The notes: generated by a model not told the origin, from the letters alone. Shown: positions 99 through 31,070, counted from the first letter of the stretch. The stretch is DNA of 64,000 bases from a virus (IMGVR_UViG_3300042387_002391); one strand, 5' to 3'. A program made the numbers and translations.

Positions 99-665
99 TT
101 AACGAGTACGACGACGAGTATTTGCGACCGTAATAGGTCTGCGAATGTTTGTTTTGCGCCAGAATTGATAAGCAAGAGTTACAGGAACTGTTACAATCGT
201 TCCAGAATCAGCAACGCTATAAGCAGTATCAGCAACGGACACGATATAAGCACCATACATAGTGTACTCGCTGATTGTTGTCATGTCTTTGTCAAATAAT
301 TGCATGATCAATACAGAAGAATCAGAAGGAGTGTTGTAGTCGCCTGTCGAAGTATTATCATTGAATGTCTGGAAGGTATTTTGTTCAAGAACATTGCGGA
401 TGTCATAGCGCTGATCACAGCGGAATGTTACAGAATATCCAGTAGAGCCAGGATAAGTGGCTGTGCCAGGAATGTTGAACGGAAGGCCCATATAAGGAAC
501 TGTTTGGTTTGTGATGGATCTGCCAGGCAATGAAGCAGTTTCAACATAAACAAGATCGTCTTCTGTAAATCCAGTATTTCCGAAACGGACTAGACGAAAT
601 TGAAATTGACGAGCGAAGTCGCGTGTTTGAGCTACTCTGTAGAATGATGTAATGTTTTGAGCCAT
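99..665 (-). CDS. gp19: Tail tube protein (T4 gp19-like)
   Basis: 188 aa with ETASLPGRSI, VPYMG..IPG and VTLAYQFW motifs; downstream of the sheath gene; TAGATAAGTA late-type promoter upstream. Confidence 0.85.
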   Translation of the reverse strand: MAQNITSFYRVAQTRDFARQFQFRLVRFGNTGFTEDDLVYVETASLPGRSITNQTVPYMGLPFNIPGTATYPGSTGYSVTFRCDQRYDIRNVLEQNTFQTFNDNTSTGDYNTPSDSSVLIMQLFDKDMTTISEYTMYGAYIVSVADTAYSVADSGTIVTVPVTLAYQFWRKTNIRRPITVANTRRRTR

Positions 666-799
666 GATTTTACTTATCTAAAATGGTTAAATTTTTAAGG
701 TTTGAAAGGTAGTATTTCCGAATTTATTTATCTGACGTTCGATAATTTTTGTATCAAATAAATGGTTGAACGTATTTAAAATTAAATTAATTAATTCTA

Positions 800-2662
800 A
801 TGAATAATATGAATTTAGATATAGAACTAGTAAAGCAACTAAGAACAAAGCATCCAAAACATTACTGCAAAATTATTAAAAACCATTATCAAGAAATTTA
901 TAAAGCAATTGAAGATTTTGCACAGAATGTGTATTGCGATTACCAAATGAATTTTCCACAAAAAATATATCACTGGATTCACCAGCTTCACAAAATTCCA
1001 CTTTGTCCGATTAAGAATGTACTTTTAAAATTTTATAATCATAAGTTTGAATACAGAAAGTTTAGCGAAAGAGGATTGTTCACAGAAGAGTTTGCAAAAA
1101 ATAGAATGAAGGGAAGAACAAAATTTCCTAATGCCAAAGAAAGAATGGGTGATATTGATGCAAATTTTCGATACGAAGAAAATTATAAGGAACAAGCTTT
1201 TAAGCAAGTCAGCAAAATGTTTGACGAAATACAAAACATTGGGGGAGTTTGTACCGCAATTAAAACCAAAAAGAATGCTAAACTGTATTCTTTTGTTAAA
1301 AATTTATATCCAACAGCAGAAACGTTTTCAGAGTGTTTGTTTTTGCTTTTAAACAACATGTCTGAACCACCTTTGTGTCCATTTTCCAAGCTTCCTTTGC
1401 CTTTTGTAAATTTTAAGCAAGGTTATAAAGACACTCACCCTGCTGCTGTTTGCGATTTAAAGAGACACAAAAGGCAAGAAAAGCTTCAAAATCTCGAAAT
1501 TTTGTCTAAAGAAGAAACAATTGTACAACTTCAAATGATGATAGACGAGCTCAGAAGAAACAATATTTCGATCAATAATTTGAAGCAGTCTGCGGTTAAA
1601 AGATGTCCTAGTTTAGCAATATCGATCGAACAGCACACAAAAACATATACAACTCTTACCAAAAAATGGTCAGAAAGAGCTTATTTGCTTTTGCATGAAG
1701 GCGAATCGAGAGATTTCTCGAAATGCAGATTTTCTTCTTTTGATGAAGGCTACTATGACACATTCGTTAACCCTAACAGTTCGATTGGAGAAGAAAATCT
1801 TGCGAGTTGGATCGAAAGTCTGAGTGTCAGCAAAATAAGGAGGCACGAAAGGCTTTTAAACGGGATGGAGGCAGACATCTATGCCGAGAATGTTAACTTA
1901 GCGATAGAATATCACGGCGAATATTATCATAATTTTGAATTTAGAGGCACAGACTATCACAAGCGAAAAGCAGATGCTGCTTTAACCAAAAATATAAATT
2001 TGCTTCAAATTTTTGAAAGCGAATGGTATAATAAGCAAGAAATAGTAAAGTCTATTATTAAATCTGAACTGGGAATATTCTCTTTCAAAGTTGATGCAGA
2101 ATCGTGCTTAGTTAAGCAACTTGACTCTAAAACAAAAAATGAATTTTTAGTAAAAAACCATATTCAGGGAATCGACCGTTCGATTATTGCTTTTGGCCTT
2201 TATTTCGATGACGAATTAGTCTCTTGTATGACATTCGGAAGAGGATGTAAACAAAAGGACAATCGAATTGAATTAGTTAAATTTTGCAATAAACTAGACA
2301 CTGCAGTAATTGGAGGAGCAAGTAAACTGATAAATGCATTCGCAAAGCAGTTTAAGCCTGCAAAAATTTTTACATTTTCAGACAGAAGATTTGCAAATAG
2401 TAGTAATTTTTACGAAGATTTGGGTTTTAAAAAATGTAACCAAACAATACCGAATTATTTTTACTTCAAATCTAGCATGCCTCAATACATGAAGTTAATC
2501 CACCATTGCAATTTCGCGAAACATTTGCTGCCTCGTAAATTAAAACAGTATGACGCAAATCAAACAGAGTATGAAAATATGAAGCAGAACGGTTACTTTA
2601 AAATTTATGATGCAGGAAGCTTCAGATATGAACTAACTTTTAAACAACCTACCAATGTTTAG
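800..2662 (+). mobile_element. Free-standing Hef-like homing endonuclease gene (PD-(D/E)xK/DUF559-type nuclease plus C-terminal domain)
   Basis: EADIY..NLAIEYHGEYYH, LLQIFESEW, IELVKFC..VIGGASKL, KIYDAG motifs; inserted antisense between sheath and tube genes. Confidence 0.8.
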
Positions 2663-2677
2663 TTGGTAGGTTGTTTT
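2642..2677. terminator. Bidirectional intrinsic terminator between convergent endonuclease and sheath genes
   Basis: aaacaacctaccaa..ttggtaggttgttt inverted repeat followed by a T-rich tract. Confidence 0.7.
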
Positions 2678-2690
2678 CCTTTTTGACTTT

Positions 2691-4793
2691 TTAAATAATT
2701 TCTTGGAAGTTTTGGCTCGTGCGGGTTGCAATAAAGTCAATCAAAATAAATTCCGAACTCCGTACAGCCTTCAAATAAATGCTAACCAAAAGTTCGTTAT
2801 TATCGATGACATCAGGTGTGTTAATTCTTTCGTCGCAGACAATTTCAAAGTCAAAAAGTCCTTCTGTGTTCTTTGCAAACTCAAAAATTGGAGTAATAAC
2901 ACTCTTCAGACGAGTCCTTGTAAATTCGGTATTTGGTTCAAACACAAAATACTTCAAGGTTCTTTGAGTTGCTCTTTCGAGAGTTAGGAACAATCTGCGA
3001 ACATTGATGCGATCAAAAGCAGTTGGTTTTGTTTGAAGGGTTTTTTGACCCATTACAGCAAATCCGTCTCCACTAAAGAACACAACAGGGTTTACAGAAA
3101 TTTCATAAAGTCTGTCGCGTTGTTTTTGATTTGGATTGAAAGCAATATCGAGAGCATTGAAAGTGCCTCTGTTGAGACCTGCTGGAGCAAACCATGGTTG
3201 AGAGACCGCATCATTGCGAGCAAATGTTGCAGCAGCATAACCTGAAAACGGTACCCACATTCTGCGACCTGTAAAGATATCAGAAACTTTGACCCAGTTA
3301 CCATACATTGCAGCATAGTTGCTTTCAGAGCTAGCAATCTCTTTGAGGGGATTGTAAATGTCTTGGGTAAATGTTTTTCCTTCAGAATCAATTACTTTTG
3401 AGTCTCTGCCCAATACAAAAATAGGACGAAGAGGATCGATAATTGCCATGCAATCTTTGCGAGTATTTTGAGCAAAGTTGACAAGTGTGTCAGAAACTGC
3501 GCGGAAGTCATCAGTCAAGGCAGAAACATCGCTGACGAATGTTTCATCATTGAAGGAGCTAATTCCGAGCGTATTTGTCATTGCAAATACTGTAGAAAGA
3601 CCGGCATCAACAATAACATCAACAATAGTGTTTTCAATGCTTTCGAGAGGACGAAGAGCTTTGTCAAGCTTTCCTGGAACGCTTCCGATAACTTTCGAAA
3701 CGTCTTGTGAGCGGCTGTCGGGAGTAAAGACGCCAAGAGGGAAGAGAGCTTTGGCTCCGTCAGTAACAGTAACGCGAGAGGTCGGAAGAGTGGAGTTAAC
3801 AGCCCATTGATAGCTCTTAGAGATTGCTGGGTTGATATACATCTTAATTGTCGGAGAGGCATCGTTGATATTATCTCCAATGAATGCGTTTGAAAGAATG
3901 CCACCAGTTGGGCTTACTTGGCGTCTGTTATAATCAAATGAGCCGAGGTACTTTTCAGTTGTTGCGAGGGTTAACATTGTTGCGTCTGAAGTAGAACGAC
4001 GAACTTTATAAACACCGAGGGAAAGATGATCTTGATATTCATCAGTTTCGAAACCGATGAAGCCAACCTTTTCGAGAGATTCAGAAATGCTATACAAGCC
4101 TCTGTTGCTGTCTGCAAGAGTTGCTGAAAGAGCAAAGTCGATGCGATCTGTCGTAATCGAACCAAATGTATCAGAAGCAGTAAGAGTCGTTAGAGCAAGA
4201 ACCGATTCGAAGTTTGGTGAGCTGGTGGAAACCGCAAGGTTGTCTGCAAAGCCAACATAGTAGCCTTCTGCATATTCATTGACAACTGTTTGGAGGTCAT
4301 TAAGAATGAAGAAGCCGGCGTTAATTTCGACATCACCTGTAAGTTTAGCAGAAAGAACGGAAGAACCGGTGCCAACCCAATCAAAGTTGCCTTCAACGAG
4401 CTTTGTGTATTGCTCTTGGCTCATGCTTGCCGCAATTGGCGCACCAATCTCCCATTCGCCAGTTGCTGAAGTCATTGGATAGAATAGAGCTCCAAAAGAA
4501 TTGGAATAAGCAGAACCAGTGTTTGCTCCGTATGGTAAACGAACAGTGTTCAGAACGCCAGGAGAATTGAGAACTTCTTTACAGCTGTAGTAAAAGTACA
4601 TTTCAGCTGGTGTCGAAGGAATGCCGTAAATTGATTCAAATTCGCTTGTTGAAGTAATCAACAAAGGCTCGCTGACAGGACCTTGGGGAGCAAAGCCAGG
4701 AACAACGATTGTCGTGCCTGCTTGAATTTGTGTACGAAGTGAAAGATCTTTTTCAGTAATCTGAACGCCGGGTGAGTTAATGATTCTTGCCAT
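2691..4793 (-). CDS. gp18: Contractile tail sheath protein (gp18)
   Basis: SPGVQITEKDLS N-terminus; PWFAPAGLNRG, DRINVRRLF and FEPN motifs. Confidence 0.95.
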   Translation of the reverse strand: MARIINSPGVQITEKDLSLRTQIQAGTTIVVPGFAPQGPVSEPLLITSTSEFESIYGIPSTPAEMYFYYSCKEVLNSPGVLNTVRLPYGANTGSAYSNSFGALFYPMTSATGEWEIGAPIAASMSQEQYTKLVEGNFDWVGTGSSVLSAKLTGDVEINAGFFILNDLQTVVNEYAEGYYVGFADNLAVSTSSPNFESVLALTTLTASDTFGSITTDRIDFALSATLADSNRGLYSISESLEKVGFIGFETDEYQDHLSLGVYKVRRSTSDATMLTLATTEKYLGSFDYNRRQVSPTGGILSNAFIGDNINDASPTIKMYINPAISKSYQWAVNSTLPTSRVTVTDGAKALFPLGVFTPDSRSQDVSKVIGSVPGKLDKALRPLESIENTIVDVIVDAGLSTVFAMTNTLGISSFNDETFVSDVSALTDDFRAVSDTLVNFAQNTRKDCMAIIDPLRPIFVLGRDSKVIDSEGKTFTQDIYNPLKEIASSESNYAAMYGNWVKVSDIFTGRRMWVPFSGYAAATFARNDAVSQPWFAPAGLNRGTFNALDIAFNPNQKQRDRLYEISVNPVVFFSGDGFAVMGQKTLQTKPTAFDRINVRRLFLTLERATQRTLKYFVFEPNTEFTRTRLKSVITPIFEFAKNTEGLFDFEIVCDERINTPDVIDNNELLVSIYLKAVRSSEFILIDFIATRTSQNFQEII

Positions 4794-4865
4794 ATATTTT
4801 ATTTATCTAATTTCGGATTATTTTTTCGTTTGCGCATAAAAAACCTGTATTTTTGCGTGCAAATT

Positions 4866-5486
4866 TTATTTAATGGCGTTCAGATTATTTTTCTTCTTTC
4901 TAATCATATTAAATTGATTAAATTGAAAATCCGCAGTAGTTTCAAGAATTTCTCCGTCTCTATAAGAATAGTTAATTCCTCTCAAATTTGTAATAAAAGC
5001 ATTGTGATAAACAAATTCGACAACAGTTTCATTATATTCATTCAGTGCAAGAATTGAAAAAGTGGTTTGATATTCATTAACCATTCCGCTTTCCATGCTT
5101 GCTGCAGCAGTCATCAAAGCTCCTGGTGTTCCATCATAAATACTCAAGCGCGGATCATTCAAAACAGCAAGCCATCTCCACAACACATAATAATTTTTAT
5201 AATCATTATCAACAACAAAGTTAACAGAAATTGGGGGATGGTTTGGACGATGGTGTGAAGAAAAGTTCAGTGTCTGACCGACCCAATCTACTTCCACGGC
5301 TGGTACAGTAATGTCTGGCACAATTGTTCCGTGAACACTAATTTGCACAGAATCAATATCTAAGTCTGGATCGGTTTTGCTCATCTCTCTTAAAATCTTC
5401 GGAAGAGTTAAGACAAGAATAAACTTATCCTTCGAAGCAACGTTCAAAGGAGACTGGAGTGTTGGATTTTGGCAAATTTCAGACAT
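4866..5486 (-). CDS. gp3: Tail completion/sheath stabiliser (gp3-like)
   Basis: ISVNFVVDNDYKNYYVLWRWL motif; position next to the sheath gene. Confidence 0.65.
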   Translation of the reverse strand: MSEICQNPTLQSPLNVASKDKFILVLTLPKILREMSKTDPDLDIDSVQISVHGTIVPDITVPAVEVDWVGQTLNFSSHHRPNHPPISVNFVVDNDYKNYYVLWRWLAVLNDPRLSIYDGTPGALMTAAASMESGMVNEYQTTFSILALNEYNETVVEFVYHNAFITNLRGINYSYRDGEILETTADFQFNQFNMIRKKKNNLNAIK

Positions 5487-7449
5487 CTTGGTTGTAATAT
5501 GTGTATCCCATTTCTAGGAGCGATTCTTCATCTAAATCATACTTATCAAGAGTTTCAAGTTCTTTCTGAGTAATTCCGAGAGCTGGATATGCAAGATTTT
5601 CTTCAGCAGCTGGTTTCGGAACAACTGAAGGATTTTTACTAAGATCTTTCAAATCATAATTTTCTGTAAAGTTTTCCCAGTAACCATTCGGAACAATTTT
5701 TAAAGGATGGTTCTGTAAGTCAAAATCTACAATCTGAAAGTATTGTTCGACTATTTCGGTTTTGAGAATGAATAAAGCCCAAGTAAGAGCCATAATTCTA
5801 TCGTCGAAGAATTTATCTGTTCTTTTTTTATAAACGCCATTTGGATGTTTCACAAATGTTTCAAACTCAGAAATTGTTTGCGGGTCGTTTATTTGTACGC
5901 ATTGCAAATGATTTACCCAATATCTCATATTTCCAATTCCGTCACTTCTGATATTTGTATGAGAAAGTACTCCAAGATTTCTTGTTGTATTGTATTTGTC
6001 TGAAGTAGATATTTTTGAATATGCAACAATTTTTTCGTAATTGTGATGATAATGCAGAGCATCAATAACTTGGGCACCGCAATTGTTTCTTTCAATCAGT
6101 ATTGGAGGCACACCCCAAGATTGTCCGATTGTTAGCAGTTTATTTGCAAAGTGGTATGGTTCAATAACTGCTGAACCGTATACAGCCACTTGCTGAATGT
6201 TTTGAAGATCCGTTACATCAAGAATTTGAGCAACAGATGCTGCTCTTCCAATACCTTCTCCAACGTCTACTCCGATTACATAAAGTTTATTCTTATCGGG
6301 ATATTCAAAGACGCTGTAGTCACCTTCTTCTGAAGTCCAAATCGGAGGCTTTTTAGTTTGTTTAAATCTTTCTATGAGAAGTGCTCCAACTGCTGAGGTG
6401 GAGTCGTCAAGGAAGCAATTATGAACTAGCACGCCGTTTGCATAGTAACAAGAACCATCAACACTTATGAGATCATATACCCATCTTTTTTGTTTGATCT
6501 TTTTTATGTTAGTAATCTTTTGCAGTTCTCCTCGCTCTCCTTCTAAAAAATCTCCTACGCTTAGCGAATCAGCTATCTTGAGTTCTCCTTCTACGATAAA
6601 CGGATGCTTTAGTGACGCAACTATTTTTGTTCTGTCTGTTGTAAACTCTAAAACATTTTTCTTGAGTCTCTGAACTCCTTTAAATGAACGAAGTCCCCAA
6701 GGTGTAGACACTTTTAAATTTTTGTCGTTAATAGCTACATTTTCTGAGAGCAATTCTTTAAAAAGATCGTATAAGTCTCGGATTTTATAAAATTTTGAAT
6801 CTCCTTCGTTGCTTATGTAAACTTGTGACGAACCTCCTACGCAATTGTTAAATTCTTGCAAGAACTTTTCTTCTGATCCGAGAGCAGCAATCATTGTCTC
6901 TTTCCATGCTTGATCTCTTCCAGGAACTTCCCACCAATCAATTCTTTCTGCTTTCCAAGGCGGATTTAAGTTCTGTTCAGCCTGTGAATATATTTCGTAA
7001 AATTTATTTCCGACTCCCTGTGGCGTACTCACCAGTAATATTTTAGACTTTTTGCCAGACGAAATTGTAGGAATAACCGATGACCAAAATTCTTCAAGCA
7101 AGTGTGTATTGTGATGGAGAACTCCGTTTGAGTAAAACATCCGACTAGGCACATCAACAATATCATACACAAAATCTTTGTTTTTCAGCTTTTCTTTTGC
7201 AATAACTTTATCGAGACCACTCTTTGTTTGAATAATTCTATTCTTGCAATTTCTAACAAGCAAACTATCGCCCTTTTTGTCTATTAGTGAATGGTTTGCT
7301 GACGCTTTAAATGTTAAGCCAGATCTCGTTGTAATTTTATAAATGGACTTTGGTCGGTATTTGGCAACACCTTTAAAAACTTCCCATCCATTAGGCGTTT
7401 CTATTTTTATGCCTTTTGTATTTGGTTTAAACTCAATTAAATCCTTCAT
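5479..7449 (-). CDS. terL: Large terminase fragment 3: IntC (114 aa) + ATPase C-part + cis mini-intein + nuclease domain
   Basis: NGVLHHN|THLL junction; VSTPQG coupling motif; QEFNN|CVGG...NGVLVHN|CFL; IGVDVGEG and DDRIMAL nuclease motifs. Confidence 0.9.
   Translation of the reverse strand: MKDLIEFKPNTKGIKIETPNGWEVFKGVAKYRPKSIYKITTRSGLTFKASANHSLIDKKGDSLLVRNCKNRIIQTKSGLDKVIAKEKLKNKDFVYDIVDVPSRMFYSNGVLHHNTHLLEEFWSSVIPTISSGKKSKILLVSTPQGVGNKFYEIYSQAEQNLNPPWKAERIDWWEVPGRDQAWKETMIAALGSEEKFLQEFNNCVGGSSQVYISNEGDSKFYKIRDLYDLFKELLSENVAINDKNLKVSTPWGLRSFKGVQRLKKNVLEFTTDRTKIVASLKHPFIVEGELKIADSLSVGDFLEGERGELQKITNIKKIKQKRWVYDLISVDGSCYYANGVLVHNCFLDDSTSAVGALLIERFKQTKKPPIWTSEEGDYSVFEYPDKNKLYVIGVDVGEGIGRAASVAQILDVTDLQNIQQVAVYGSAVIEPYHFANKLLTIGQSWGVPPILIERNNCGAQVIDALHYHHNYEKIVAYSKISTSDKYNTTRNLGVLSHTNIRSDGIGNMRYWVNHLQCVQINDPQTISEFETFVKHPNGVYKKRTDKFFDDRIMALTWALFILKTEIVEQYFQIVDFDLQNHPLKIVPNGYWENFTENYDLKDLSKNPSVVPKPAAEENLAYPALGITQKELETLDKYDLDEESLLEMGYTYYNQDV
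6418..6843 (-). mobile_element. Cis mini-intein (142 aa) in terL
   Basis: Starts CVGGSSQV, block B ASLKHPF, ends YANGVLVHN, followed by Cys. Confidence 0.9.
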
Positions 7450-7535
7450 AATTGATTATATAACTCATCTATGGTTGAAGAAACAATTTGATTTTCAGAG
7501 TTCATCAGATTAATTTTTGAGTCTCCTTGGAGACA
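7108..7535 (-). mobile_element. Atypically split intein 2 of terL: IntN 29 aa (7449-7535) + IntC 114 aa (7108-7449)
   Basis: CLQGDSKINL...IDELYNQL*, then an ATGA overlap into MKDLIEF...ASANH...NGVLHHN|T. Confidence 0.85.
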
Positions 7536-8612
7536 CTCTATGAACGCACATTCGTCAACCATGACGCAATTATGCGCTTGCAAACCGTTTGCAAAAAAGT
7601 GATGGTGCTCTGTCTCAATTACATCAAAAACTTCTGTTAGTTTATTCTTAGAAATTTCTTCAATCGAAATTATTTTTTCTGGTCCGTCAACGGTTTGAAT
7701 AATATCACTAATGCTGAAATTTTTTGCTTGCTTAAATTCCGACGAGTTAAAAAATAACAAATGATCTTCTGTACAAGAAACTTCCTTTTTGCTTTCTGTA
7801 GTTAATTTTAAAATGGGACTACTGACAGTGCTTCTTTTAATTCCCGAAAAGCTGCTCCAACCTGTTCCGGTTAGTACTTTAGAATTTTGTGTATTAAGCT
7901 TTTGTTTGAGTGTTTGCTCAAAAGGATTCCCAAATATTTCAAAAGCTTTTGATAATGTTATCTCTCTCTGATCAGACTCTCTGTCGTTAATTGTTATTTT
8001 GCAATCTCCTGTAAGACAGTTTAAAGAATCGCCGCGAATAGAAGTAGCTGTCGTAGTCGAAACTATAATGCTCGAGTCGTTGCCGAGCGTCATTCCAGTT
8101 TTTGCATAATCTTTTACACCTGGTTTGATATAGTTTGGAAGCTGTTCGTAAGCCATCCTAATTCTTTTAAAAATGTTGATTGCTGTTGTTTCTTTATTAG
8201 CTACAATAGCAACTCTATAGTCGTCATGAAAACAAACCATCCAAAGTGAAAAGATAGTAAGAAGTGTCGAATTGTGAGACAAAATACCGTTAGAATAAAA
8301 TCTGTGATTATCATCTTTCACAGCAACGTCATACATATTTTCGATCTTATCTGTCTTTTTGATTGAAGTAATTTTTTGAAGGCCCTTTTCTGTCATGATC
8401 TCATCGCCCTCTCGAAGATCTTTTACATAAACTTCTTGCAAATATTTTTTGTAGACAATGTGTTCGTCAGCACACTCTAGAAAAAAATTTTTAGTTTTAA
8501 TTTTCCAGACTTGGTACGGAATAGTTTTGTAAGCAGCCTCAAGATCTTGCCAGCCACTGTCAGTCATTATTTCGTAATCTGAAATTTTTCTTGTTTCGAT
8601 GATTTCTGCCAT
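7446..8612 (-). CDS. terL: Large terminase fragment 2: IntC + 84-aa extein + cis intein + 11-aa Walker B extein + IntN
   Basis: NGILSHN|STLL; ANKETTA; SIRGDSLN|CLTGD...NGLQAHN|CVMVDECAFIE|CLQGD; segment lengths 114+84+150+11+29 = 388 aa. Confidence 0.9.
   Translation of the reverse strand: MAEIIETRKISDYEIMTDSGWQDLEAAYKTIPYQVWKIKTKNFFLECADEHIVYKKYLQEVYVKDLREGDEIMTEKGLQKITSIKKTDKIENMYDVAVKDDNHRFYSNGILSHNSTLLTIFSLWMVCFHDDYRVAIVANKETTAINIFKRIRMAYEQLPNYIKPGVKDYAKTGMTLGNDSSIIVSTTTATSIRGDSLNCLTGDCKITINDRESDQREITLSKAFEIFGNPFEQTLKQKLNTQNSKVLTGTGWSSFSGIKRSTVSSPILKLTTESKKEVSCTEDHLLFFNSSEFKQAKNFSISDIIQTVDGPEKIISIEEISKNKLTEVFDVIETEHHHFFANGLQAHNCVMVDECAFIECLQGDSKINLMNSENQIVSSTIDELYNQL
7569..8018 (-). mobile_element. 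Cis mini-intein (150 aa) in terL
   Basis: CLTGDCKI start, CTEDH block B, FANGLQAHN end, followed by Cys. Confidence 0.9.
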
Positions 8613-10195
8613 TTTCTTTAATTAGTTTGTTTAATTTCTTTTAAAACAGGAGGCTCTAAAAGAAATTCTAAGCAAGTGTTAAGAATTTTTTGTTTGTCTT
8701 TGTAATAATCCATTTCTGGAATGTGCAAAATCTTGCAGTTAATTGCTTCTACAATTTGTTGATCTCTTTTTTGATCATTTTGAGTTCCTCTTCGATTTCT
8801 TTCGTCGTGCCAATATGCTCCATCAAATTCAATGCACTTGTTAATGCTCTTAATAAAGAAATCCAACCTTCTGTAAGTAGTAGATGTTTGAACTTTGTAT
8901 TCAAGAGTTTTTCCCGTATCTTCTTTAGCACCATTGTTAAAGGTTGCAAAGAAAATATCCGAAGGATCAAACAATTGTTTTATTTTCTCGTAAATTGACC
9001 AAAATAATTCTTGTGAAACCTTTGAATATACAGAAGATTTGTTTGAATCCATCCATTTTTTTGTAATTCCTTTTCTAATTTCTGTTGCTTCTTCAAACGA
9101 GCATTCGTGTCTCCTAGCAATAGCTTCTACAGAATTTGTTGTTTGTCTTTCTCTCACTTTTTCTTTTGCCTCTTCTTCTGTATATCCTCTTTTCAACCAA
9201 TAACCTTTTTGGTTTGGCATATTTTGAAGTTCTTTTTGTCTTTGGCTAATTTTTTCTCCGTTATCGTTTCTATTCTCAAATTTGTTGTGCCACAAAACGT
9301 TGCAAGACGAATTGTGACAAAAGTTTCTGTAGCCTGCTTCAATATTGTAGAACGGAACTGGTTTACAGCACCATTTACAAGTGCCTGTTGCAGAAGGATC
9401 AACATATTTTTTGTAGTAGTCCTCCAGAGGCATTTGCAATTTTGCTATGTGCAATGAAAGTCTGCTGAGAGAGGGAAATTTTTCGCCGTCAATTGCGCAT
9501 TGATATGTTAAATCGTCTGTTGTATATACGCCTTTCTTGAGTTTAGAATCTCTGTTATAGTGAAGCGTGCAGCAAGCATTTGTTCTAGTTTGTTCATAAG
9601 GAACTTTGTTGTCGCAAGAAGCAAGTCTGCATTTTGTATCATCCAAAATGTATTTGTTGTAAAGAAATTTTTTCTGCTCACTAGAGAAGTTATTTTTTGT
9701 CATGCACAAAGCAATTCCTGCCCAACCTGAAAAATAATTGTTGATTTCTTCTACGTATATAAAATTTTTGATGGCTGATTTGCATTTTTCTTTGTCCTTG
9801 TATTTTTTAAAAGTCTTTTTAATAATCACTCCGCAAAACAAGCCGCAAGATTTATATGTCTCGTAAGTTAGTTTGCGGTCAGTAATCATGCACCTCGGAC
9901 ATATGTCGGAAGTAAAAATAAAGGTATCATAAAAATTCTTGACGTTGTTCTTTCCCTCTTTTGTAGACACAGCTCTCAGCAGGCCTGTAACGTTGTTGTA
10001 ATTTTTATTTTGGTAGGTTATATGGTTTGCCATAAAGTTATTTATCTACCTTTAAGGCCTTTTCAACTTTGACTCGAAACTAAAATTGCTGCTAGACTAT
10101 TTAGAAGCTAGTTCGAACAAGTCTTTGACTGAAATTTCCTGTATTTCTCCAGTCTTTTTGTTGCGAACCTTTATAATACTTTCAGATTGAAGGCA
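8271..10195 (-). mobile_element. Atypically split intein 1 of terL: IntN 32 aa (10100-10195) and IntC 114 aa (8271-8612) flanking an endonuclease gene
   Basis: RQVGK|CLQSESIIKVR...KDLFELASK* and MAEIIE...CADEH...NGILSHN|S; splicing would restore Walker A RQVGKST. Confidence 0.88.
8618..10033 (-). mobile_element. Free-standing homing endonuclease gene (Vsr-like/DUF559 PD-(D/E)xK domain, Zn-finger modules)
   Basis: LDFFIKSINKCIEFDGAYWH; CKWC..F....GYRNFC module; sits between the split-intein halves. Confidence 0.85.
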
Positions 10196-10873
10196 CTTCC
10201 CAACTTGGCGAGATGAAAGAACGCAAGCCATACGCTCTCGGACAAACGTTCTCAGAACTCTTCTCTGAGCCTCATACAACTCAATCCTTACTTTGCCTTT
10301 ATCAAGGTTTATAATATAAAAAAAGTTTTCTGCAAAATAAATGATATCGTCTTTGCATTTTACTAACTCACTAACCATGTCTGCAGTAAACTCATACTGA
10401 GCTCCTGCTACTGGAATGTTTTTAGAACCTCTATAATAATATGAAGGATCGATTGGTTCTTGGTTAATAATTTTTTGTGTGGAAGTATTATAACCAGCTT
10501 CTGTAAATTTATCGTCGTCTAGAGTAGCATTCAGCAAATCATTCTCTGTTACTTTTGGAGCTTTGGTTTTTTTTACAGGTTTCGCTTCCAAGGTTTGAGA
10601 AACCTCGAACTCTTCCTTCTCTTTCTTTTCTTTCTTCTCTAACTGCTTAACGGTTGGAATTCTAATAACCTTTCCGTCTTTTTTAATAATAGGTGGTCTA
10701 CCAATTGGTCTTTTCTTCCCAGACCCTTTCGGACGTCCTCTCCTTGGCTTATTTTTAACGCCCTTTGGACGCCCTCCCTTATTCTTAAAAACTGGCTGCT
10801 CTTGCTGAGAGTGCTCGTTGCTTTGAGAAATTTCTGGAGCTGCTTGGTTATCTTGTTCTGACTGTTCTTCCAT
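10097..10873 (-). CDS. terL: Large terminase fragment 1 (AT-hook-like N-extension, Walker A, IntN)
   Basis: CKDDIIYFAENFFYI, LYEAQ and SRQVGK as in T4-like gp17; GRP repeats near the N-terminus. Confidence 0.88.
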   Translation of the reverse strand: MEEQSEQDNQAAPEISQSNEHSQQEQPVFKNKGGRPKGVKNKPRRGRPKGSGKKRPIGRPPIIKKDGKVIRIPTVKQLEKKEKKEKEEFEVSQTLEAKPVKKTKAPKVTENDLLNATLDDDKFTEAGYNTSTQKIINQEPIDPSYYYRGSKNIPVAGAQYEFTADMVSELVKCKDDIIYFAENFFYIINLDKGKVRIELYEAQRRVLRTFVRERMACVLSSRQVGKCLQSESIIKVRNKKTGEIQEISVKDLFELASK

Positions 10874-10904
10874 GGCTTCTAATTAGCCCTCAGAAGCACC
10901 TTTT

Positions 10905-11255: not shown

Positions 11256-11259
11256 AAAT

Positions 11260-11586: not shown

Positions 11587-11668
11587 GTTTTTAATTACTA
11601 CTAATAATGCACTAGGTCTAGCAAAAGACAATAACGAAAAAAAAAACAATTTTAGATAAGTAAATTAT

Positions 11669-12412: not shown

Positions 12413-12426
12413 TTTTGCATTCAAAC

Positions 12427-13589: not shown

Positions 13590-13620
13590 TTGGTTTACCT
13601 TAAACCACTTTTTAAATGTT

Positions 13621-15132: not shown

Positions 15133-15140
15133 AATTTATG

Positions 15141-18802: not shown

Positions 18803-18812
18803 AGATCATTAA

Positions 18813-19016: not shown

Positions 19017-19027
19017 TCAACTCACGC

Positions 19028-20444: not shown

Positions 20445-20450
20445 AACTTA

Positions 20451-21332: not shown

Positions 21333-21366
21333 AAAATTTAACAAAGAATTTTTATTTAACGGGATA

Positions 21367-24946: not shown

Positions 24947-24995
24947 ATGTTTTCTCTATAAGAATCTTGTATTTTTAGAATTTTTCAACAAAAGA

Positions 24996-25024
24996 AAAAG
25001 GAGAGTTTTGGACTCTCCTTTTTT
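24996..25024. terminator. Intrinsic terminator
   Basis: aaaaaggagagt-ttgg-actctcctttt-type inverted repeat with A/T tails. Confidence 0.8.
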
Positions 25025-25049
25025 AGCAGTTGACTCTTAACTAAAGTTT

Positions 25050-25412
25050 TTATTCATCGTCAAACAATTTCACTACGTCAGCACTTTTCTGTTGAGCAGG
25101 CTGCGGAGGTGCAAAAAGCTGATCATACTGAGCAGCAAATTGAAAAGCAAAAGGAATTGAATCGCTGAGAGTAATATTTGCCTTATTAAAGTGCCATACC
25201 GTTGGTTGACCTTTATCTGCTTGAAATTCCTTGAAAAACAAGGGAAGAATTTGAAGCTGGAGTTGGTTTGTTTGTGAATTTGGTTGGATATGAACCAGAG
25301 CAGGATTCTCAATAGTCAGAGTGGTCTCTGTTTGCTTAATTGCTTTTCCGATGACTGTTCGTCCGATTGTATCGAGGAACACTGTTAGTTCTTTGTTGGT
25401 TGTTTCACTCAT
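25050..25412 (-). CDS. Hypothetical protein
   Basis: 120-aa ORF ending VVKLFDDE. Confidence 0.6.
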   Translation of the reverse strand: MSETTNKELTVFLDTIGRTVIGKAIKQTETTLTIENPALVHIQPNSQTNQLQLQILPLFFKEFQADKGQPTVWHFNKANITLSDSIPFAFQFAAQYDQLFAPPQPAQQKSADVVKLFDDE

Positions 25413-25774
25413 AATTTGTAAGCCTTGACCTTCTTTGATTTTTTAGAAAGTTCAACAACCTGCGTGACATAAAGCAAAACTTTTTCTCCTTTCGGAGTTA
25501 GCATAATTCTGTCATCCGAAGCAATCCAAATCAGATCATAAACTTCGAGCATGTACATAAAATCTCCGGCAAGGTCGCAAGTAATATAATCAACAAGATA
25601 ACAATCCTCATTTACAATACTTTTTAAAGTATCATAGAGCTCTTGATAGGAAAGAGCTTGAAGAATTTGTTCTGCAGAGTACACAAAGGTAATTAGTTCA
25701 CATTCCAAACATTTCAAAAAGATCTGTCTGAACTTCTTTTCCAATTTGCGGTAAAGACCATCCAATTGCTTCAT
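25409..25774 (-). CDS. Hypothetical protein (possible winged helix; true start probably further downstream)
   Basis: IMLTPKGEK wing-like motif; ATGA overlap with the next gene. Confidence 0.45.
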   Translation of the reverse strand: MKQLDGLYRKLEKKFRQIFLKCLECELITFVYSAEQILQALSYQELYDTLKSIVNEDCYLVDYITCDLAGDFMYMLEVYDLIWIASDDRIMLTPKGEKVLLYVTQVVELSKKSKKVKAYKL

Positions 25775-27320
25775 ATAAGCGCTCAGTTGGTTGCGTGACT
25801 AATTTTGCAAACATCCTATCCCAATCTGGCTTCAGACCAAATTCTAAAGGAAGTGTCGAAACGTATGTAATTGCGTCCAAACCGTATTTGTTCTTTGTGC
25901 AATATAACTTCTTAACTTTCTGTCCAGTCTGAATTGCTTCAAATTTATCATCAATTTTAAACTCTTTAATAAGAATATTATAAGCAATTGCTCCTTTGAC
26001 ATGAGAAGGAGTTTTATTTGCAAATTTGTAGAGCGATGATCCTTCTGCATATTTGTCGAGATTGTTAATAGAAGTTCTGGCAGCAACATCATTAGGATCA
26101 AGATTCAAAAATTCATTATAACCTTCTCTATAAACTTCGTTGGTTTGCTTTATATTTTGAGTAAGAAGTGCTGTTTGAATAATTTTTTCAATAAACTTCT
26201 TAACTTTCTTCGGAGTTGTTGAGCGAACAAGTTCAATTCCTGTATATTTAAATTTATCTACAGCAACGCCCTCTTCATCAAGAACGTGAAGAACATATCG
26301 CTTCTTTTGCAAGAATATTCCAACATCCGAAATAACTTCTCTCTTGAAAACATATCGAGGATCAACTGAAAATAATTCTTTCCTAGCCCACTCGAGAATT
26401 TCTGTATTGACTACTTTATCGAGTTCATCAACAATTTCATGAACCTTTTCATTAACCTTTCCATCAATTGTAAGAGGAATGTTTTGCTTTTGGAGAATTG
26501 GATCAATTGTTATATAAACAGAATTATGAACAAGAATGTCATTAGCAAAGAAAGTATGCTCTGTGTCATCTGCCATTTCAATATCATAAACATATTCATC
26601 TTCAAACTCTCCAATGTGTTCTACTGAAGTAATATCAACAATTAAAGGGGTTCTGTTTACATTTACAACAAATTTATCAGTATCTTTGCAAACTTGCTTT
26701 GGAGGCAATCTCAACAAAGTATTGTCTCTCCAAACCATGCAACCATGATCTTCTGTCATTATTACTTCGTTGCCATTTGCACAAACTTTATATTTGCCTT
26801 TTGAAACTTTGTGACGAATGAGCTTTTTTATTTTTCCAAAAACAATTTCGTGATTTTCGGAATTATAAGTCAAACATTGCAAATCGATGTCAGAAACATC
26901 CAAAATTTCATGACCAAATTGTGAGAGGTCTGTTGGACTGTTTTTGAATTTTTCATACAAGTCACCAATGCAAATATCCCCTTTATTAGTGGTTATAACA
27001 GTGCTAAAAATTTCACTGTCCGTATCGCCATATTTGGTAACTGACTCAGAAATGCCGTATTTTTCTCTTACAAAATTGTCAAGAATGTTTCCTCCAGCCT
27101 TGGCAACGCTTTGGCCAGTTGCTGTAATAGATGAGGCATGATCCAAGTCCATCAAAGACGAGTGTTTGTTAGACGTGACACCATAGGCGCTGTTCAAGAG
27201 CACCTTCAAAGCGGCATTAAGATTGTTGTAGTGGGTTATACTCCATACCATTTTCTTCTCTAATTCCTTCAACTCTTCTAGAGTCATTTCTTGATAGGAT
27301 TTTTTTGTCATATGGTTCAA
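25698..27320 (-). CDS. gp43: Family B DNA polymerase fragment C (fingers-2, palm, thumb) with intein
   Basis: KVLLNSAYG, YGDTD|S, KKRY and GIELVRS motifs; clamp-binding-like tail DLFEMF. Confidence 0.92.
   Translation of the reverse strand: MNHMTKKSYQEMTLEELKELEKKMVWSITHYNNLNAALKVLLNSAYGVTSNKHSSLMDLDHASSITATGQSVAKAGGNILDNFVREKYGISESVTKYGDTDSEIFSTVITTNKGDICIGDLYEKFKNSPTDLSQFGHEILDVSDIDLQCLTYNSENHEIVFGKIKKLIRHKVSKGKYKVCANGNEVIMTEDHGCMVWRDNTLLRLPPKQVCKDTDKFVVNVNRTPLIVDITSVEHIGEFEDEYVYDIEMADDTEHTFFANDILVHNSVYITIDPILQKQNIPLTIDGKVNEKVHEIVDELDKVVNTEILEWARKELFSVDPRYVFKREVISDVGIFLQKKRYVLHVLDEEGVAVDKFKYTGIELVRSTTPKKVKKFIEKIIQTALLTQNIKQTNEVYREGYNEFLNLDPNDVAARTSINNLDKYAEGSSLYKFANKTPSHVKGAIAYNILIKEFKIDDKFEAIQTGQKVKKLYCTKNKYGLDAITYVSTLPLEFGLKPDWDRMFAKLVTQPTERLYEAIGWSLPQIGKEVQTDLFEMFGM
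26523..27017 (-). mobile_element. Cis mini-intein (165 aa) at the polB YGDTD|S site
   Basis: Ser start, MTEDH block B, FANDILVHN|S end. Confidence 0.9.
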
Positions 27321-28524
27321 AATATTTTAAGTCTTCGTCTGTTAAATTTAACACGATGTCGATTACTCGTTCGTCTTCTATCTTAGCATTCTTTTTCTTA
27401 TTTTCTACTGAAGTTAACATTTGTAGGTTTTTAAAGTGTGACATTTTTTGGGGATCAATGTCGTGCTCAAAGCCGTAAATTTTAGGTAGAACATGGTCTA
27501 TGTGAAACTTCTTTAATCCTCTCGGAAGATTGTCGGGATTAATAACATTTCTGTGGAGTCTATATGATATGGTCGTATAATACTCTACTAAAAATTTGTA
27601 TTCTGCCCACTTTTCAGGATCTCTATGTTTTCTATTGCTTAGTCCTGTATATGTCCATCTACATCTTTCGCTACAAAAATCACGATAACCTGTATTAAGC
27701 GTTTTAAACTCACAAGGCTTATTGCAAAAAAGACATTCGTCAGGTTTATCTTTTTCATACATGAAAAGATGATACGATTCAGGTTTTGTTTTTGCTGGAT
27801 ATTCTTTTACAATTTTCGAATGAATTGAAGGAAAGTAATGTTCTACGAAATACGTCATCGAACAATAATCGATCTTATTGAGCTCTGTAATAAATTCGTG
27901 CAAGTTTTTCTCATCGTGTTTGTTAGCAAATTCTGCAAGTGCTTGATATGAGTATCCCACCGACAATGTTTGAAACTGCAAGTGTTTGCCGTTGCAAATT
28001 ATTGGTTCTATATCATGATAATAACAGTAAAGAGCTTCCCTGTTATGTTTGCATTTTTTTCTAATTTCTTTGAGTTTTTTGTATTCGTCAGGAAAGGCTA
28101 GTTTAGCAACATCGATCAATTGTACTCCTGAAAGTTTATTGTCAGCGCATACCTTTATTATGTCTTTCAGCGAACTTTTGTTGTTGGTATTTTCGATGAG
28201 AACATGCACATTAACGTTTTTCCAAACATACTTGGTGGAAACTATAATGTCGTTATAAATCAACGGTGTATAATTTTTTTCTGTAAAAGAAATTTTTTTA
28301 AACTCGCCGCTTACGGTTTTATAGTACACTGTCTTTCCTTCAACCTTTTTCCAAAGATCCGGATAATCTGATTTAATCTTAGCAAAACTATCTTTGGTGT
28401 AGTTTGCGTTAATAAATTTTCTTGGAGTAGAAAGAGTTTTTGTAATCAACTCTACCAACTCATTATTTTCTTCAGAACTTCCGTAAGTAGGGTTTTCGCT
28501 ATTGTTACTATTATCAATTATCAT
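27217..28524 (-). mobile_element. Free-standing HNH homing endonuclease gene inside polB
   Basis: HIDHVLP...NLQMLTSVENKKK; CLFC..F....GYRDFC module. Confidence 0.85.
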
Positions 28525-28548
28525 GATAATAGTATTTATGCTATAAAT

Positions 28549-29841
28549 TTATTTTTCTTTGGATTTAATAGCCTTTTTGATTTTGGCGAGCTCTTGCTTA
28601 AAATAATTCATCTGATCCTTACTTTCTACACGCTCTTTGTAGATCTGATCGATTAGATTTGGAAGAATACCTTTGGTTTTTTGACTATACAATACTCCAG
28701 CCTTAGTGAGTGCTACATTTTCTTTGACTAGGAATTCTTTAAATTTTTGTCCCGAAAGCGTATGAATCTTGCCATTCAAAAGCCTTATCGAAATTTCTCC
28801 TTTTGGATCATTAGCAATATTCCCGAAATCTCCTTGAACAACTTTCCCTAATTTTGTTTCTGGAGAAATGTTTAATGTAATAATAGTATTGGGATATAGT
28901 GAATTAACGTCAAAACTCACAATCGACTTTTGAATACCTCTTTCTGGATCTCTTACAAACCCTCCTTCAAAAGCTTCTCTGTCAAGATTGTTCGGAAAGG
29001 TGGGAATAACCATTCCTTGTTTATGAGCCTGAATAGCAACTGCTCCCGTAACAACTGCAACTTTTCCGAGGGCTGCTTCAAAATTTGTGCATCCCTTATA
29101 AGCAATCATTCTAGCAATTTCCAAGAATTTGAGCTTTTCTTCAAGCTTTACGAGCAAATGCACATCTTGAATATTGTAATCTACAAACAATTTCCAGTCT
29201 GTATGAGCCAATTCACCTAAGCTAACTGCATTATAAGCAATCTTTCCTTCTCCGAGTTCAAGTTCAGCAATATAATTTAAACTAAACGATTCTTTCTCTC
29301 CAGGCGAAAAGGCTTTATAAAGATCCATGTAATCAATCAAAGACACTCCGCTAATCGACCATACAGTAATTTCTTTACCCATGTCAGTAAAGACTTTCCT
29401 TCCTCTCACATTTCCAACTGGCGACAACTGTTTTACGAAGTCGTCGCCAAAAATTCTCGTAAATCGATTAATGATATAAGGAAAGTCAAACCCAGAAGAA
29501 TTCCAACCTGAAGCAATATCTGGATAATCGCTCTTCCAAAAATCTACAAATTGCAAGATCAAATCTTGCTCATCCTTACATCTGTGATAAATGCAATCAG
29601 GAAGAGTTGGAGTATATTGCTCCTTAAGTCCCCAAGTATGAGTTGCTTTGGTTAAGGTATCATAAATTGTTATCAAATTGATAGGAACGGCTGCTCTCTC
29701 AGGAACTGGGAACTGTCCTCTCTTTGCGTAACAAGTTTGAGAGTAGCTAACCCATTTGTGCTGTTCTTCATCATACACCTCATATTCTTCTTTATCAGAA
29801 AGTGTTAAAAAATTTTCTATGCTAATTTGTTGTTCTGTCAT
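28549..29841 (-). CDS. gp43: Family B DNA polymerase fragment B (exonuclease II/III, motif A, fingers-1)
   Basis: GWNSSGFDFPY, YNIQDV, FDVNSLYP motifs; ends in the fingers helix. Confidence 0.92.
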   Translation of the reverse strand: MTEQQISIENFLTLSDKEEYEVYDEEQHKWVSYSQTCYAKRGQFPVPERAAVPINLITIYDTLTKATHTWGLKEQYTPTLPDCIYHRCKDEQDLILQFVDFWKSDYPDIASGWNSSGFDFPYIINRFTRIFGDDFVKQLSPVGNVRGRKVFTDMGKEITVWSISGVSLIDYMDLYKAFSPGEKESFSLNYIAELELGEGKIAYNAVSLGELAHTDWKLFVDYNIQDVHLLVKLEEKLKFLEIARMIAYKGCTNFEAALGKVAVVTGAVAIQAHKQGMVIPTFPNNLDREAFEGGFVRDPERGIQKSIVSFDVNSLYPNTIITLNISPETKLGKVVQGDFGNIANDPKGEISIRLLNGKIHTLSGQKFKEFLVKENVALTKAGVLYSQKTKGILPNLIDQIYKERVESKDQMNYFKQELAKIKKAIKSKEK

Positions 29842-30622
29842 ATGAATATCTGTTGCGATAAGTAATCATTCTGCTTCTAGCTTTAGGATTAATGGTCAAT
29901 AAATATGCCTCAAATTCTTTCTCACTCATTTTTCCTAAACGTTCTGTTAGAATCTGTGGCTGATTTGTCTTTTTTCCTTTTGATATATTAGCTCCACGTT
30001 TCTTATGGTCAACGTTTTTGTTGTGAAGAGAATTTAAGCATCTTTGAATTTTTTGTTCAGGTGTCAACGTTTGAATAAAGGTTTTAAGAGTGTTGCTGAC
30101 ATTTTTATATTTTTCTTCTTTCGTAATTTTTGGCTTTTGTACTTTAGGAGCATAATTATGTCCAAACAAATACTTGCTTTGTTTTTGCTTGACAGGGTTT
30201 CCGCACCCACAACAACACAGCGGCAGAGGATCCTTGGGAGGTCTTGGTTTAGATAACATTGCTTCTCTTATTTTTTGCCTTACTTCAGGACACTTGGTTG
30301 GGTGATTTTTAGCAAATTCGATGCGCGCAATCTCAAATTGTTTGCTGTTAAAAAATCGCTGGTGGTGATTCTTTGAACACATTTTATTGAATGCTGAGGC
30401 CAGCTTGCTTCTCACTTGTATCGAGTCGTTTTGATGAATTTTGCATAACAATCTGTGTATTAGAAAGTGTTCTCTTGCCGTAAGTTTGACTAAATTGTCG
30501 CGATCATTTGTTCCGCCTAAACATTTTGGTAAAATGTGATGTTTTTCGTAGTATTGGCCACTTATTGTTTGTCTGGATTTAGATCTTTCAATAATCGAGT
30601 CGTGCACATTTTTATAATTCAT
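29822..30622 (-). mobile_element. Free-standing HNH homing endonuclease gene inside polB
   Basis: EKHHILPKCLGGTN..NLVKLTAREHFLIH; C-terminal CCCGCG and basic DNA-binding region. Confidence 0.88.
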
Positions 30623-30625
30623 ATG

Positions 30626-30648
30626 TGCGTTTACTTAATCTAAACGCA
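30626..30648 (-). promoter_or_regulatory. Hairpin overlapping a late-type TAAGTA promoter before the HNH start
   Basis: TGCGTTTA-GATTAAG-TAAACGCA, ending 3 nt before the ATG. Confidence 0.65.
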
Positions 30649-30668
30649 ACATCTACCTCGATATCAAA

Positions 30669-31070
30669 TCATGTTTGCCGTTTTCTAATCTTGATTTTGT
30701 GTGATTTTGGATATGATGAGGTATCAACTTCAATATCCAACAAAAATACTTTCAAAGGAAATTGCGAAAAGGTTGGATCTCCATTCTGCTCCTTATACAT
30801 ATCAATAAGGAATTGCTGTTCTGGTCCAAGATTATGAAAGATTCTTTTGTTAGCTGTGTTGTCTACAAACTTCTTGCGCTCTAAACTATTCTTAAAAGTC
30901 TTCTTCATCAAAGAAGTCTTGAAAATCGATACAGCATCTTCTGCACCATCCTTCTCAAGATACAAAAACGGACGAAAAGGAATCTCTGTATCAATTCTCT
31001 GACCATCTTCTGTCCAAGTTCTCAAGAAGACCGATTCATTAAAAGGATTGTAGGAAGCAGCGCGATACAT
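30669..31070 (-). CDS. gp43: Family B DNA polymerase fragment A (N-terminal domain, ExoI DIE)
   Basis: PFRPFLY and LKVFLLDIEVD motifs. Confidence 0.88.
   Translation of the reverse strand: MYRAASYNPFNESVFLRTWTEDGQRIDTEIPFRPFLYLEKDGAEDAVSIFKTSLMKKTFKNSLERKKFVDNTANKRIFHNLGPEQQFLIDMYKEQNGDPTFSQFPLKVFLLDIEVDTSSYPKSHKIKIRKRQT

Follow-up and report, generated by a model that had tools for sequence, protein, structure and literature searches.

The 64,000-nucleotide stretch of viral DNA IMGVR_UViG_3300042387_002391, referred to here as the window and analysed at its full length, carries a DNA polymerase gene (polB) that is split by free-standing homing endonuclease genes (HEGs). It raises the question of why the DNA just ahead of one of these, HEG_A, repeats the codons of the polymerase motif ExoI without being translated. 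A first-pass annotation had proposed that four HEGs of the window, two in polB, one in the large terminase gene terL and one beside the tail tube gene, are each preceded by a degenerate copy of neighbouring host-gene sequence, and that these copies are pseudo-target operators resembling that of the phage T4 endonuclease I-TevI. All four copies are literally present, but only that ahead of HEG_A, match (a), holds up; it belongs to a conserved element, termed here the ExoI box, found in 14 of 15 related cassettes. We put the probability that the box acts as an operator of the I-TevI style within a promoter/hairpin switch of the T4 type at roughly 0.5.

A conserved copy of the ExoI codons ahead of HEG_A

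In the window polB is represented by three open reading frames (ORFs), with HEG_A lying between fragments 1 and 2 and HEG_B between fragments 2 and 3. The features surrounding HEG_A are as follows.

30669-31070, minus strand: polB fragment 1, 133 amino acids (aa), PHROG 2062 DNA polymerase, ending ..FLLDIEVDT followed by the non-polymerase tail SSYPKSHKIKIRKRQT and a stop codon
30723-30740, minus strand: resident ExoI codons L-D-I-E-V-D, the final conserved polB motif ahead of the HEG_A insertion point
30651-30668, minus strand: ExoI box F-D-I-E-V-D, a non-translated copy beginning directly past the fragment-1 stop and lying 29-46 nt upstream of the HEG_A ATG
30627-30647, minus strand: small 7-bp hairpin GCGTTTA-gattaag-TAAACGC, ending 4 nt before the HEG_A ATG
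30632-30639, minus strand: ATTAAGTA, in the loop and 3' arm of the 7-bp hairpin, a weak late-promoter-like octamer (6/8 to TATAAATA) with putative promoter activity
29822-30622, minus strand: HEG_A, 266 aa, a free-standing MobE-family HNH homing endonuclease (PHROG 655, E=8e-43)
28549-29841, minus strand: polB fragment 2, with ExoII/III and motif A (Pfam DNA_pol_B_exo1 and DNA_pol_B)
29713-29841, minus strand: N-extension of polB fragment 2, 43 aa, non-polymerase, MTEQQISIENF..EEYEVYDEEQHKW..

The position of the insertion was established from 21 close IMG/VR relatives (59-88% identity; L001-L021) in which polB is uninterrupted. As these intact alleles read ..FLLDIEVDT, then 4-6 variable residues, then FPxPERAAVPIN, without the tail, HEG_A is inserted 1-2 codons after ExoI, and the resident ExoI codons are probably the left half of its homing site. 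Searches aimed at short fragment-1 proteins and at homologues of HEG_A identified 14 further cassettes of the same architecture (L196, L197, L199, L280-L282, L286, L287 and L360-L365), giving 15 with that of the window, and in all 15 a fragment 1 with a KIKIRKK tail is followed by a spacer, a MobE-like HEG and then fragment 2. The HEG proteins of these cassettes are 37-51% identical to HEG_A of the window and lie over 2 substitutions per site apart, and their tree is broadly congruent with that of polB; on these grounds the cassette appears to be old, the congruent trees suggesting mostly vertical descent. The footprint of mobility comprises the 21 intact alleles, the 15 carrying a HEG at the same codon, and a single split allele without a HEG. 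In this last locus (L195, 5001-7827) polB is split at ExoI and both tails are kept around a 100-nt gap, indicating that the split outlasts the endonuclease. The L195 gap keeps a decayed ..CGAGTCTATAATAG.. at the place of box and promoter.

The copy described in the first-pass annotation, reading FDIEVD with mismatches at third codon positions only, was confirmed. The box, TTTGATATCGAGGTAGAT, matches the exon, TTGGATATTGAAGTTGAT (LDIEVD), at 14/18 nt, with all four mismatches at third positions and all 12 non-wobble bases identical. Among the 15 cassettes, a GAY-ATH-GAR-(ACN|GTN) box was present just upstream of the HEG in 14 and was degenerate in L197, and in 10/15 it runs directly into a late-promoter sequence that is TATAAATA or closely resembles it. 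Its placement and orientation are flexible: direct and perfectly inverted copies flank TATAAATA in L287, an inverted box alone lies downstream of TTATAAATA in L365, and in L364, where five exon codons are matched (DIETT), the box occupies the loop of an unrelated start-codon hairpin.

Variation in the box follows the codon. Identity between the box and the resident exon was 55/60 at first (92%), 59/60 at second (98%) and 22/60 at third (37%) codon positions, with 114/120 agreement at non-wobble positions over the 15 cassettes. Parsimony changes mapped on the HEG tree numbered 6, 3 and 21 at codon positions 1, 2 and 3 of the box and 4, 3 and 21 at those of the exon, and positions 3, 6 and 9 of the box vary within Y, H and R only. 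The box itself is not translated, since from cassette to cassette it lies in frame 0, +1 or -1 with respect to fragment 1 and stop codons lie within some boxes; translation by read-through or frameshifting was ruled out on the same grounds, several boxes being preceded by or containing stops. For an element that is not translated, conservation in this codon-periodic form is an unusual signature of evolution, worth seeking elsewhere. Recent gene conversion between exon and box was also considered and rejected, third positions agreeing at approximately the level of unlinked synonymous choices.

Exon and box also change together. The window, L281 and L287 have Val (GTN) at codon 4, and the other eleven scored cassettes have Thr (ACN). 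On the HEG tree the codon switches between Val and Thr three times (in the window relative to its sister L360, in L287 relative to its sister L364, and in L281), each time jointly in exon and box. The box is also specific to this insertion site: a motif scan allowing at most one mismatch did not find it within 90 nt upstream of approximately 93 homologous HNH HEGs inserted elsewhere. It is this comparison with related cassettes, rather than the statistics of any single match, that shows match (a) to be real.

Operator, hairpin arm or relic

The conservation and codon-periodic variation of the box, its position, its flexible orientation, its co-variation with the exon and its restriction to this insertion site are all seen directly; from them we infer binding and repression along the following lines. 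A MobE-family HNH cassette cuts polB just after ExoI and has long been inherited with the gene. The box would mimic the polB sequence to the left of the insertion point, which in HEG-less alleles would form the left half of the homing site. The DNA-binding part of the endonuclease would read the codons at their coding-invariant positions and hence would also bind the box, which would be free to drift at wobble positions because the enzyme is proposed to be shaped to the invariant positions of its coding target. Bound enzyme on a box abutting or overlapping the late promoter would silence HEG transcription without cleavage, following the logic of the I-TevI operator, while in most relatives the same sequence also serves as one arm of a dyad or hairpin that hides the HEG start codon, as in the T4 late-promoter/hairpin switch. 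If this reading is true, autorepression through a homing-site mimic extends beyond the intron endonucleases of T4 to free-standing MobE-type HEGs that split essential genes. The box would then distinguish the bases that are read from those that are ignored, giving a computational handle on HEG specificity that is hard to obtain for uncultured phages.

The assignment of HEG_A itself was examined at the protein level. In tblastn searches residues 1-122 were 40-50% identical to annotated MobE/HNH HEGs of T4-like phages, the Pfam HNH match (E=0.005) fell below the curated cutoff, and residues H28, H29, N43 and H52 were invariant across 31 homologues. An AF2 model (pLDDT 88) places an HNH domain at the N-terminus and a helical domain at the C-terminus, joined by a Cys-rich linker; Foldseek returned no match for it at E<=0.001, and the best VIA-align Z was 6.9. 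Scanning viral contigs with the single sequences of HEG_A, HEG_T (the terL endonuclease) and HEG_B gave nothing useful, and the same was true of an alignment scan for HEG_B. The 3' end of HEG_A overlaps the downstream polB fragment 2.

Several observations weigh against an operator. The boxes were first placed by eye, and the scan of the approximately 93 HEGs at other sites is the sole blind check. Co-variation events number only three, a number at which a sign test is unable to reach significance, and the HEG tree on which they are counted has unresolved forks. Single exon-box matches are non-significant against shuffles, with p ~0.15 for match (a) of the window at both nucleotide and peptide level; plain spacer-versus-exon shuffle tests of either kind are underpowered even on true positives. 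No known DNA-binding domain clearly matched the HEG_A model in structure, the C-terminal helices of the model hitting DNA-binding helical domains weakly (Z ~4.5-5.4). The window has no TATAAATA, and its box lies 11 nt from the weak ATTAAGTA; a TAAGTA variant occupies the place of ATTAAGTA in L197 and L363, and promoters throughout are matches to a consensus rather than mapped transcription starts. In most relatives, moreover, the box doubles as the 5' arm of a hairpin or dyad in which HEG codons 2-8 supply the 3' arm and the late promoter lies inside the 5' arm, so that a function at the RNA level could explain much of its conservation. In the window this use of HEG codons has been lost, the region overall giving z=-1.0 with the 7-bp stem only.

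These last observations lead to the most serious rival, namely that the box is a hairpin or dyad arm and nothing else, pairing with the first codons of the HEG or with a dedicated inverted copy so as to hide the start codon in read-through transcripts, and that its likeness to ExoI is a frozen relic dating from the founding insertion, when promoter and exon end were neighbours. The hairpins predicted for the HEG_A homologues are strong, with start-codon hairpins giving z values from -2.3 to -7.7 overall and from -3.5 to -7.7 in L286, L282, L196, L360, L362, L363 and L287; folds involving the box reached -25.8 kcal/mol in L286 (z=-7.7) and -32.5 kcal/mol in L360, with z between -3.5 and -5.1 in L282, L196, L362 and L363. 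Three compensatory pairs (ACC:GGT, ACG:CGT and ACT:AGT) occur at one hairpin position, and the box's own frame, ..DIETYKYNI and stop, ends on the ATGA of the HEG start and looks like a primordial end of fragment 1. Gene-splitting HEGs preceded by hairpins with TATAAATA have been described (PMC2677866; PMC2988022), and HEG_B shares the promoter-plus-hairpin design, a late promoter (TATAAATA or CATAAATA) lying within or just before the 5' hairpin arm in the HEG_A homologues and in HEG_B. A hairpin alone nevertheless fails to explain the likeness to ExoI, because variation in the box is uncompensated, because the HEG of L360 has changed to fit it, and because the box persists off the stem. With positions mapped from the predicted folds, the variable positions of the box face position 2 of HEG codons and give uncompensated stem mismatches. 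In L360 it is the HEG N-terminus (MDYTFQYH) that was altered, its TFQYH fitting GATATTGAAACG, and not the reverse, so that the box seems the more constrained partner. The box is kept where it is not a stem arm, as in the window, in L364 (within the loop) and in L365 (in inverted form, part of it looped), and the three joint Val/Thr switches in exon and box are left unexplained. We regard a hairpin arm without target mimicry as possible but doubtful.

That match (a) might be an insertion scar had been offered as an alternative in the first-pass annotation. The box would then be a non-functional leftover of donor polB from co-conversion or sloppy repair, and the wobble differences would predate the insertion, having arisen when both copies were coding in different phages. 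This would fit the restriction of mismatches to third positions, the 16/18 identity of the window copy to TTTGATATCGAAGTTGAT in the intact allele L016, which reads FLFDIEVDT there, and the fact that the window copy is in frame directly after the stop. An unselected relic of 12-18 nt would, however, have been erased among HEGs more than 2 substitutions per site apart, whereas the box is kept in 14/15 cassettes, and the orientation flips in L365 and L287 misfit a simple duplication; conservation over such deep divergence makes a scar very improbable. Somewhat less remote, yet still improbable, is that the endonuclease binds the box for another purpose at the DNA level, either as a titrating decoy or as a self-nicking site that stimulates recombination. 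The evidence of target mimicry serves this proposal as well as it serves an operator, and the box is unfused to a promoter octamer in the window, L364 and L287; its fusion to the late-promoter octamer in 10/15 cassettes is the position expected of an operator. Decoy sites in phage HEGs have no precedent known to us.

Matches upstream of the other three HEGs

The first-pass annotation had treated matches (b) to (d), upstream of HEG_T, HEG_B and HEG_tube, as individually weak and their recurrence as the signal. In 13% of random 100-nt segments of the window genome, an exact direct repeat of at least 11 nt was present within +-600 nt; for repeats of at least 12 nt the proportion was 6.3%, and the corresponding values for 73 non-HEG gene-upstream regions were 15% and 6.8%. 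When the comparison with control intergenic regions suggested in the annotation was run, the four HEG upstream regions taken jointly resembled the 73 controls (P=0.14, exact-match statistics), so recurrence over the four HEGs is not above background. Short exact repeats beside HEGs are thus common in AT-rich phage DNA, and an operator reading needs comparative data; such data support an I-TevI-like target site in the control region for match (a) and not for (b), (c) or (d).

Match (c) concerns HEG_B and the third polB fragment.

28880-28890, minus strand: polB motif A codons N-T-I-I, the exact 11-mer match, approximately 330 nt upstream of the HEG_B insertion point
28506-28540, minus strand: HEG_B control region, with CATAAATA (28533-28540) followed by an 11-bp hairpin (28506-28534) burying the ATG at 28522-28524
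27217-28524, minus strand: HEG_B, 435 aa, with a C-terminal H-x-D-H..N..N of HNH type, splitting polB approximately 20 codons before motif B
25698-27320, minus strand: polB fragment 3, the actual start of which is probably downstream of the TTG at 27320

The 11-mer AATACTATTAT occurs exactly at 28526-28536 and 28880-28890 (empirical null p ~0.13-0.15), and the words of both (c) and (d) have no other occurrence in the window. The upstream copy consists of the last four bases of CATAAATA together with the 5' arm of the start-codon hairpin, which RNAfold predicts at -11.9 kcal/mol (z=-4.0, with 0/200 shuffles as stable). The exact copy and its overlap with the promoter stand as annotated; the inverted copy also noted there is the 3' arm of this hairpin. 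A HEG_B homologue 53-55% identical at the same polB site in L366 keeps CATAAATACTATTAT and a 17-bp hairpin (z=-3.9), and its likeness to motif A persists as AATACTATTATT versus AATACAATTATT, 11/12 with the mismatch at a wobble position. The likeness would be expected to persist if promoter-plus-hairpin and motif A were conserved independently of each other, each for a separate reason, and the comparison covers two lineages, too few for a co-variation test. No notable similarity was found between the HEG_B spacer and the exon adjoining its own insertion point. Match (c) appears better explained by the promoter end and hairpin arm, and the evidence leans towards coincidence. In the fragment 3 ORF, residues ~103-265 form a mini-intein at motif C after YGDTD, starting with Ser (SEIFSTVITTN..) and ending ..ILVHN|SVYITID; L001, L016 and L003, the last with ~1.1 kb of additional insert, share it, and most relatives lack it.

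Match (b) lies in terL.

10034-10096, minus strand: HEG_T spacer, holding the claimed Walker-A copy (10051-10090) and GATAAATA (10039-10046)
8618-10033, minus strand: HEG_T, 471 aa, a PD-(D/E)xK/Vsr-like endonuclease between split-intein halves in terL

HEG_T gives a Pfam MTES_1575 REase match (E=1e-4) that is below the curated cutoff, and has homologues at the same site in L115 and L122. The terL gene is fractured at Walker A, where SRQVGK|CLQSESII.. and a stop (a short N-intein of ~32 aa) precede HEG_T and a C-intein ending ..GILSHN|STLL; intein-less relatives join terL1 residue 227 straight to terL2 residue 102. The claimed terL copy did not rise above noise: its 17/27 identity is that of the best ungapped 27-mer, the alignment has no wobble pattern, and in Smith-Waterman comparison with shuffles the spacer gave p=0.10 against the exon with a best match other than the Walker-A one. 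No comparable copy was found in L122 or L176, and the similarity of the spacer to that of L115 (~69% by eye) is about that predicted by the 59% identity of the HEG_T proteins. Across its extent (5479-10873, minus strand) terL apparently holds four inteins, most of which are missing in relatives. Intein 1 is the atypical split, its short N-part (GK|CLQSESII.. and stop) lying at Walker A, its C-part reading ..GILSHN|S, and HEG_T standing between them; intein 2 is a contiguous mini-intein, N|CLTGDCKI...GLQAHN|C; intein 3 is a short-N split, E|CLQGDSKI.. and stop, the C-part of which opens the next ORF (..GVLHHN|T) with no HEG and with the ORFs overlapping by ATGA; and intein 4 is a mini-intein, NN|CVGGSSQV...GVLVHN|C. 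The atypically split AceL-TerL intein is close to the terL split intein of the window.

Match (d) lies between the sheath and tube genes.

711-722, plus strand: 12-mer identical to tail-tube codons 28-31 (573-584), inside a stretch resembling the sheath C-terminus (701-745)
800-2662, plus strand: HEG_tube, 620 aa, HNH-family (PHROG 3339, 1e-82; PHROG 559, 1e-70), inverted between the sheath and tube genes

The 12-mer is present exactly as annotated, with a marginal chance probability (p ~0.04-0.07; p=0.04 by Smith-Waterman with shuffles), and no flanking-gene copy longer than 10 nt was found upstream of the HEG_tube homologues in L091/92, L095/98 and L135. Match (a) recurs in related phages, while neither (b) nor (d) does so in homologous cassettes. 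HEG-less relatives have ~20 nt between sheath and tube, and the homologues in relatives have the same orientation as sheath and tube with a terminator ahead, whereas the window copy is inverted. The spacer at 701-745 (plus strand), GLKGSISEFIYLTFDNF, resembles the sheath C-terminus, YLKAVRSSEFILIDF (Smith-Waterman p=0.01, uncorrected for six comparisons), and the 12-mer may lie in a scar of sheath sequence brought in with the inverted cassette. Two tail-tube paralogues of 206 and 188 aa (4866-5486 and 99-665, minus strand; both PHROG 45) flank the sheath gene, and this tube-sheath-tube order is kept in relatives.

The general rule proposed in the first-pass annotation is that all four free-standing HEGs carry upstream pseudo-target operators, so that the DNA ahead of each would reveal its target. 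The four literal matches exist, (a) behaves as predicted, and (c) overlaps CATAAATA and keeps its N-T-I-I likeness in L366; against this stand statistics equal to those of the controls, the noise-level (b), the absence of (d) from three homologous cassettes and its possible origin in a sheath relic, and an account of (c) in terms of promoter and hairpin arm, in two lineages and with motif A 330 nt away. On present evidence matches (b) to (d) are not members of the ExoI-box design, and operators ahead of all four HEGs are improbable, though a little less so than a decoy or nicking role for the box. That homing-site mimicry in HEG control regions is in general a rule that can be read from sequence, with the mimic evolving as if coding (fixed at non-wobble and free at wobble positions, the enzyme having been shaped to read the invariant positions alone), is unlikely, if not to the same degree; were it true, the targets of uncharacterised free-standing HEGs would be predictable from upstream DNA, and HEG_B, for example, would target polB motif A. 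Late-promoter-like octamers with a first base other than T were observed at 725-732 (GATAAATA), 10039-10046 (GATAAATA) and 28533-28540 (CATAAATA), all on the minus strand, before the tube gene, HEG_T and HEG_B, respectively; relatives have (G/T)ATAAATAATA immediately before the tube ATG, which hints that the late-promoter consensus is slightly relaxed in the phage group of the window.

Relation to known switches and split genes

The closest parallel to the ExoI box is the autorepression operator of I-TevI in phage T4, for which binding and repression have been measured (Edgell et al. 2004, as summarised in PMC2988022). In both cases a homing-site-like sequence lies at or overlaps a late promoter in the control region of the HEG itself, beside a translational hairpin, and like that operator the box appears to lack what cleavage needs. 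I-TevI is, however, an intron-encoded GIY-YIG enzyme, while HEG_A is a free-standing MobE-type HNH enzyme that splits polB and is known here from comparison alone, and in contrast to the I-TevI operator, the ExoI mimic spans 4-6 codons of a catalytic motif, with inverted and duplicated forms occurring. Should binding be confirmed, the ExoI box would join the I-TevI operator as one of its kind. A late promoter with a hairpin sequestering the ribosome-binding site (RBS) has been described upstream of I-TevI/II/III, segB and Aeh1 mobE (Gibb and Edgell 2007, 2009), and hairpins are reported for 'fractured genes' (Dassa et al. 2009, PMC2677866). HEG_B of the window and most HEG_A homologues resemble these T4-type switches in having TATAAATA in or beside a 5' arm that buries the RBS or ATG, and a further likeness is the overlap of the HEG's 3' end with the gene fragment downstream; the published descriptions report no hairpin arm that copies, or co-varies with, a host target motif.

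The split of polB resembles that of nrdA in Aeromonas phage Aeh1, where mobE interrupts the gene and tails assemble the fragments (Crona et al. 2010, PMC3045599): a MobE-family HNH gene divides an essential gene into two ORFs, each fragment bearing at the break a unique tail that intact homologues lack. It differs in that polB is split at ExoI, that the KIKIRKK tail and DYEVWDE extension are found over 15 lineages, and that L195 has lost the HEG. The tails common to all split lineages are a basic fragment-1 sequence, ..Y..(H/K)KIKIRKK, the (H/K)KIKIRKK motif of which is kept in the split homologues P0001, P0004, P0007, P0010 and P0012, and an acidic fragment-2 sequence, ITLGEF..DYEVWDE..W..Y; both are absent from intact alleles. 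By analogy with the Aeh1 NrdA tails they may act as an assembly clasp. An intact polB carrying tail and N-extension as one continuous insertion, which would shift the homing site off ExoI, was sought and not found in any locus retrieved. Taken together, the polB tails resemble the first strands of terL N-inteins (IKIRNKKTGEIQELTLKEL in L176).

The terL arrangement of the window (SRQVGK|C.., an N-intein of ~32 aa, HEG_T and a C-intein ending HN|S) is like that of the fractured genes described by Dassa et al. (2009, PMC2677866), in which a split intein has a free-standing Vsr-like/PD-(D/E)xK HEG between its halves. Unlike the ExoI box, a target mimic could not be shown upstream of HEG_T. Group I introns were rejected as a cause of the split genes, with no Rfam match at the gathering threshold over the window nor at E<=1 over 25000-31500.

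The phage of the window is a new, distant T4-like phage with most genes on the minus strand. Family scans of its proteins identified a tail tube, sheath, large terminase, SSB, SbcC-like protein and family B polymerase, the last ~35% identical to the polymerases of cyanophages and of Methylophilales phage Melnitz, and no near-identical phage record was found. Upstream of polB, an 808-aa ORF (31102-33528, minus strand) gives glycosyltransferase matches at residues 56-317 and unrelated ones at 462-616 and 653-717, a pattern that suggests an inserted element.

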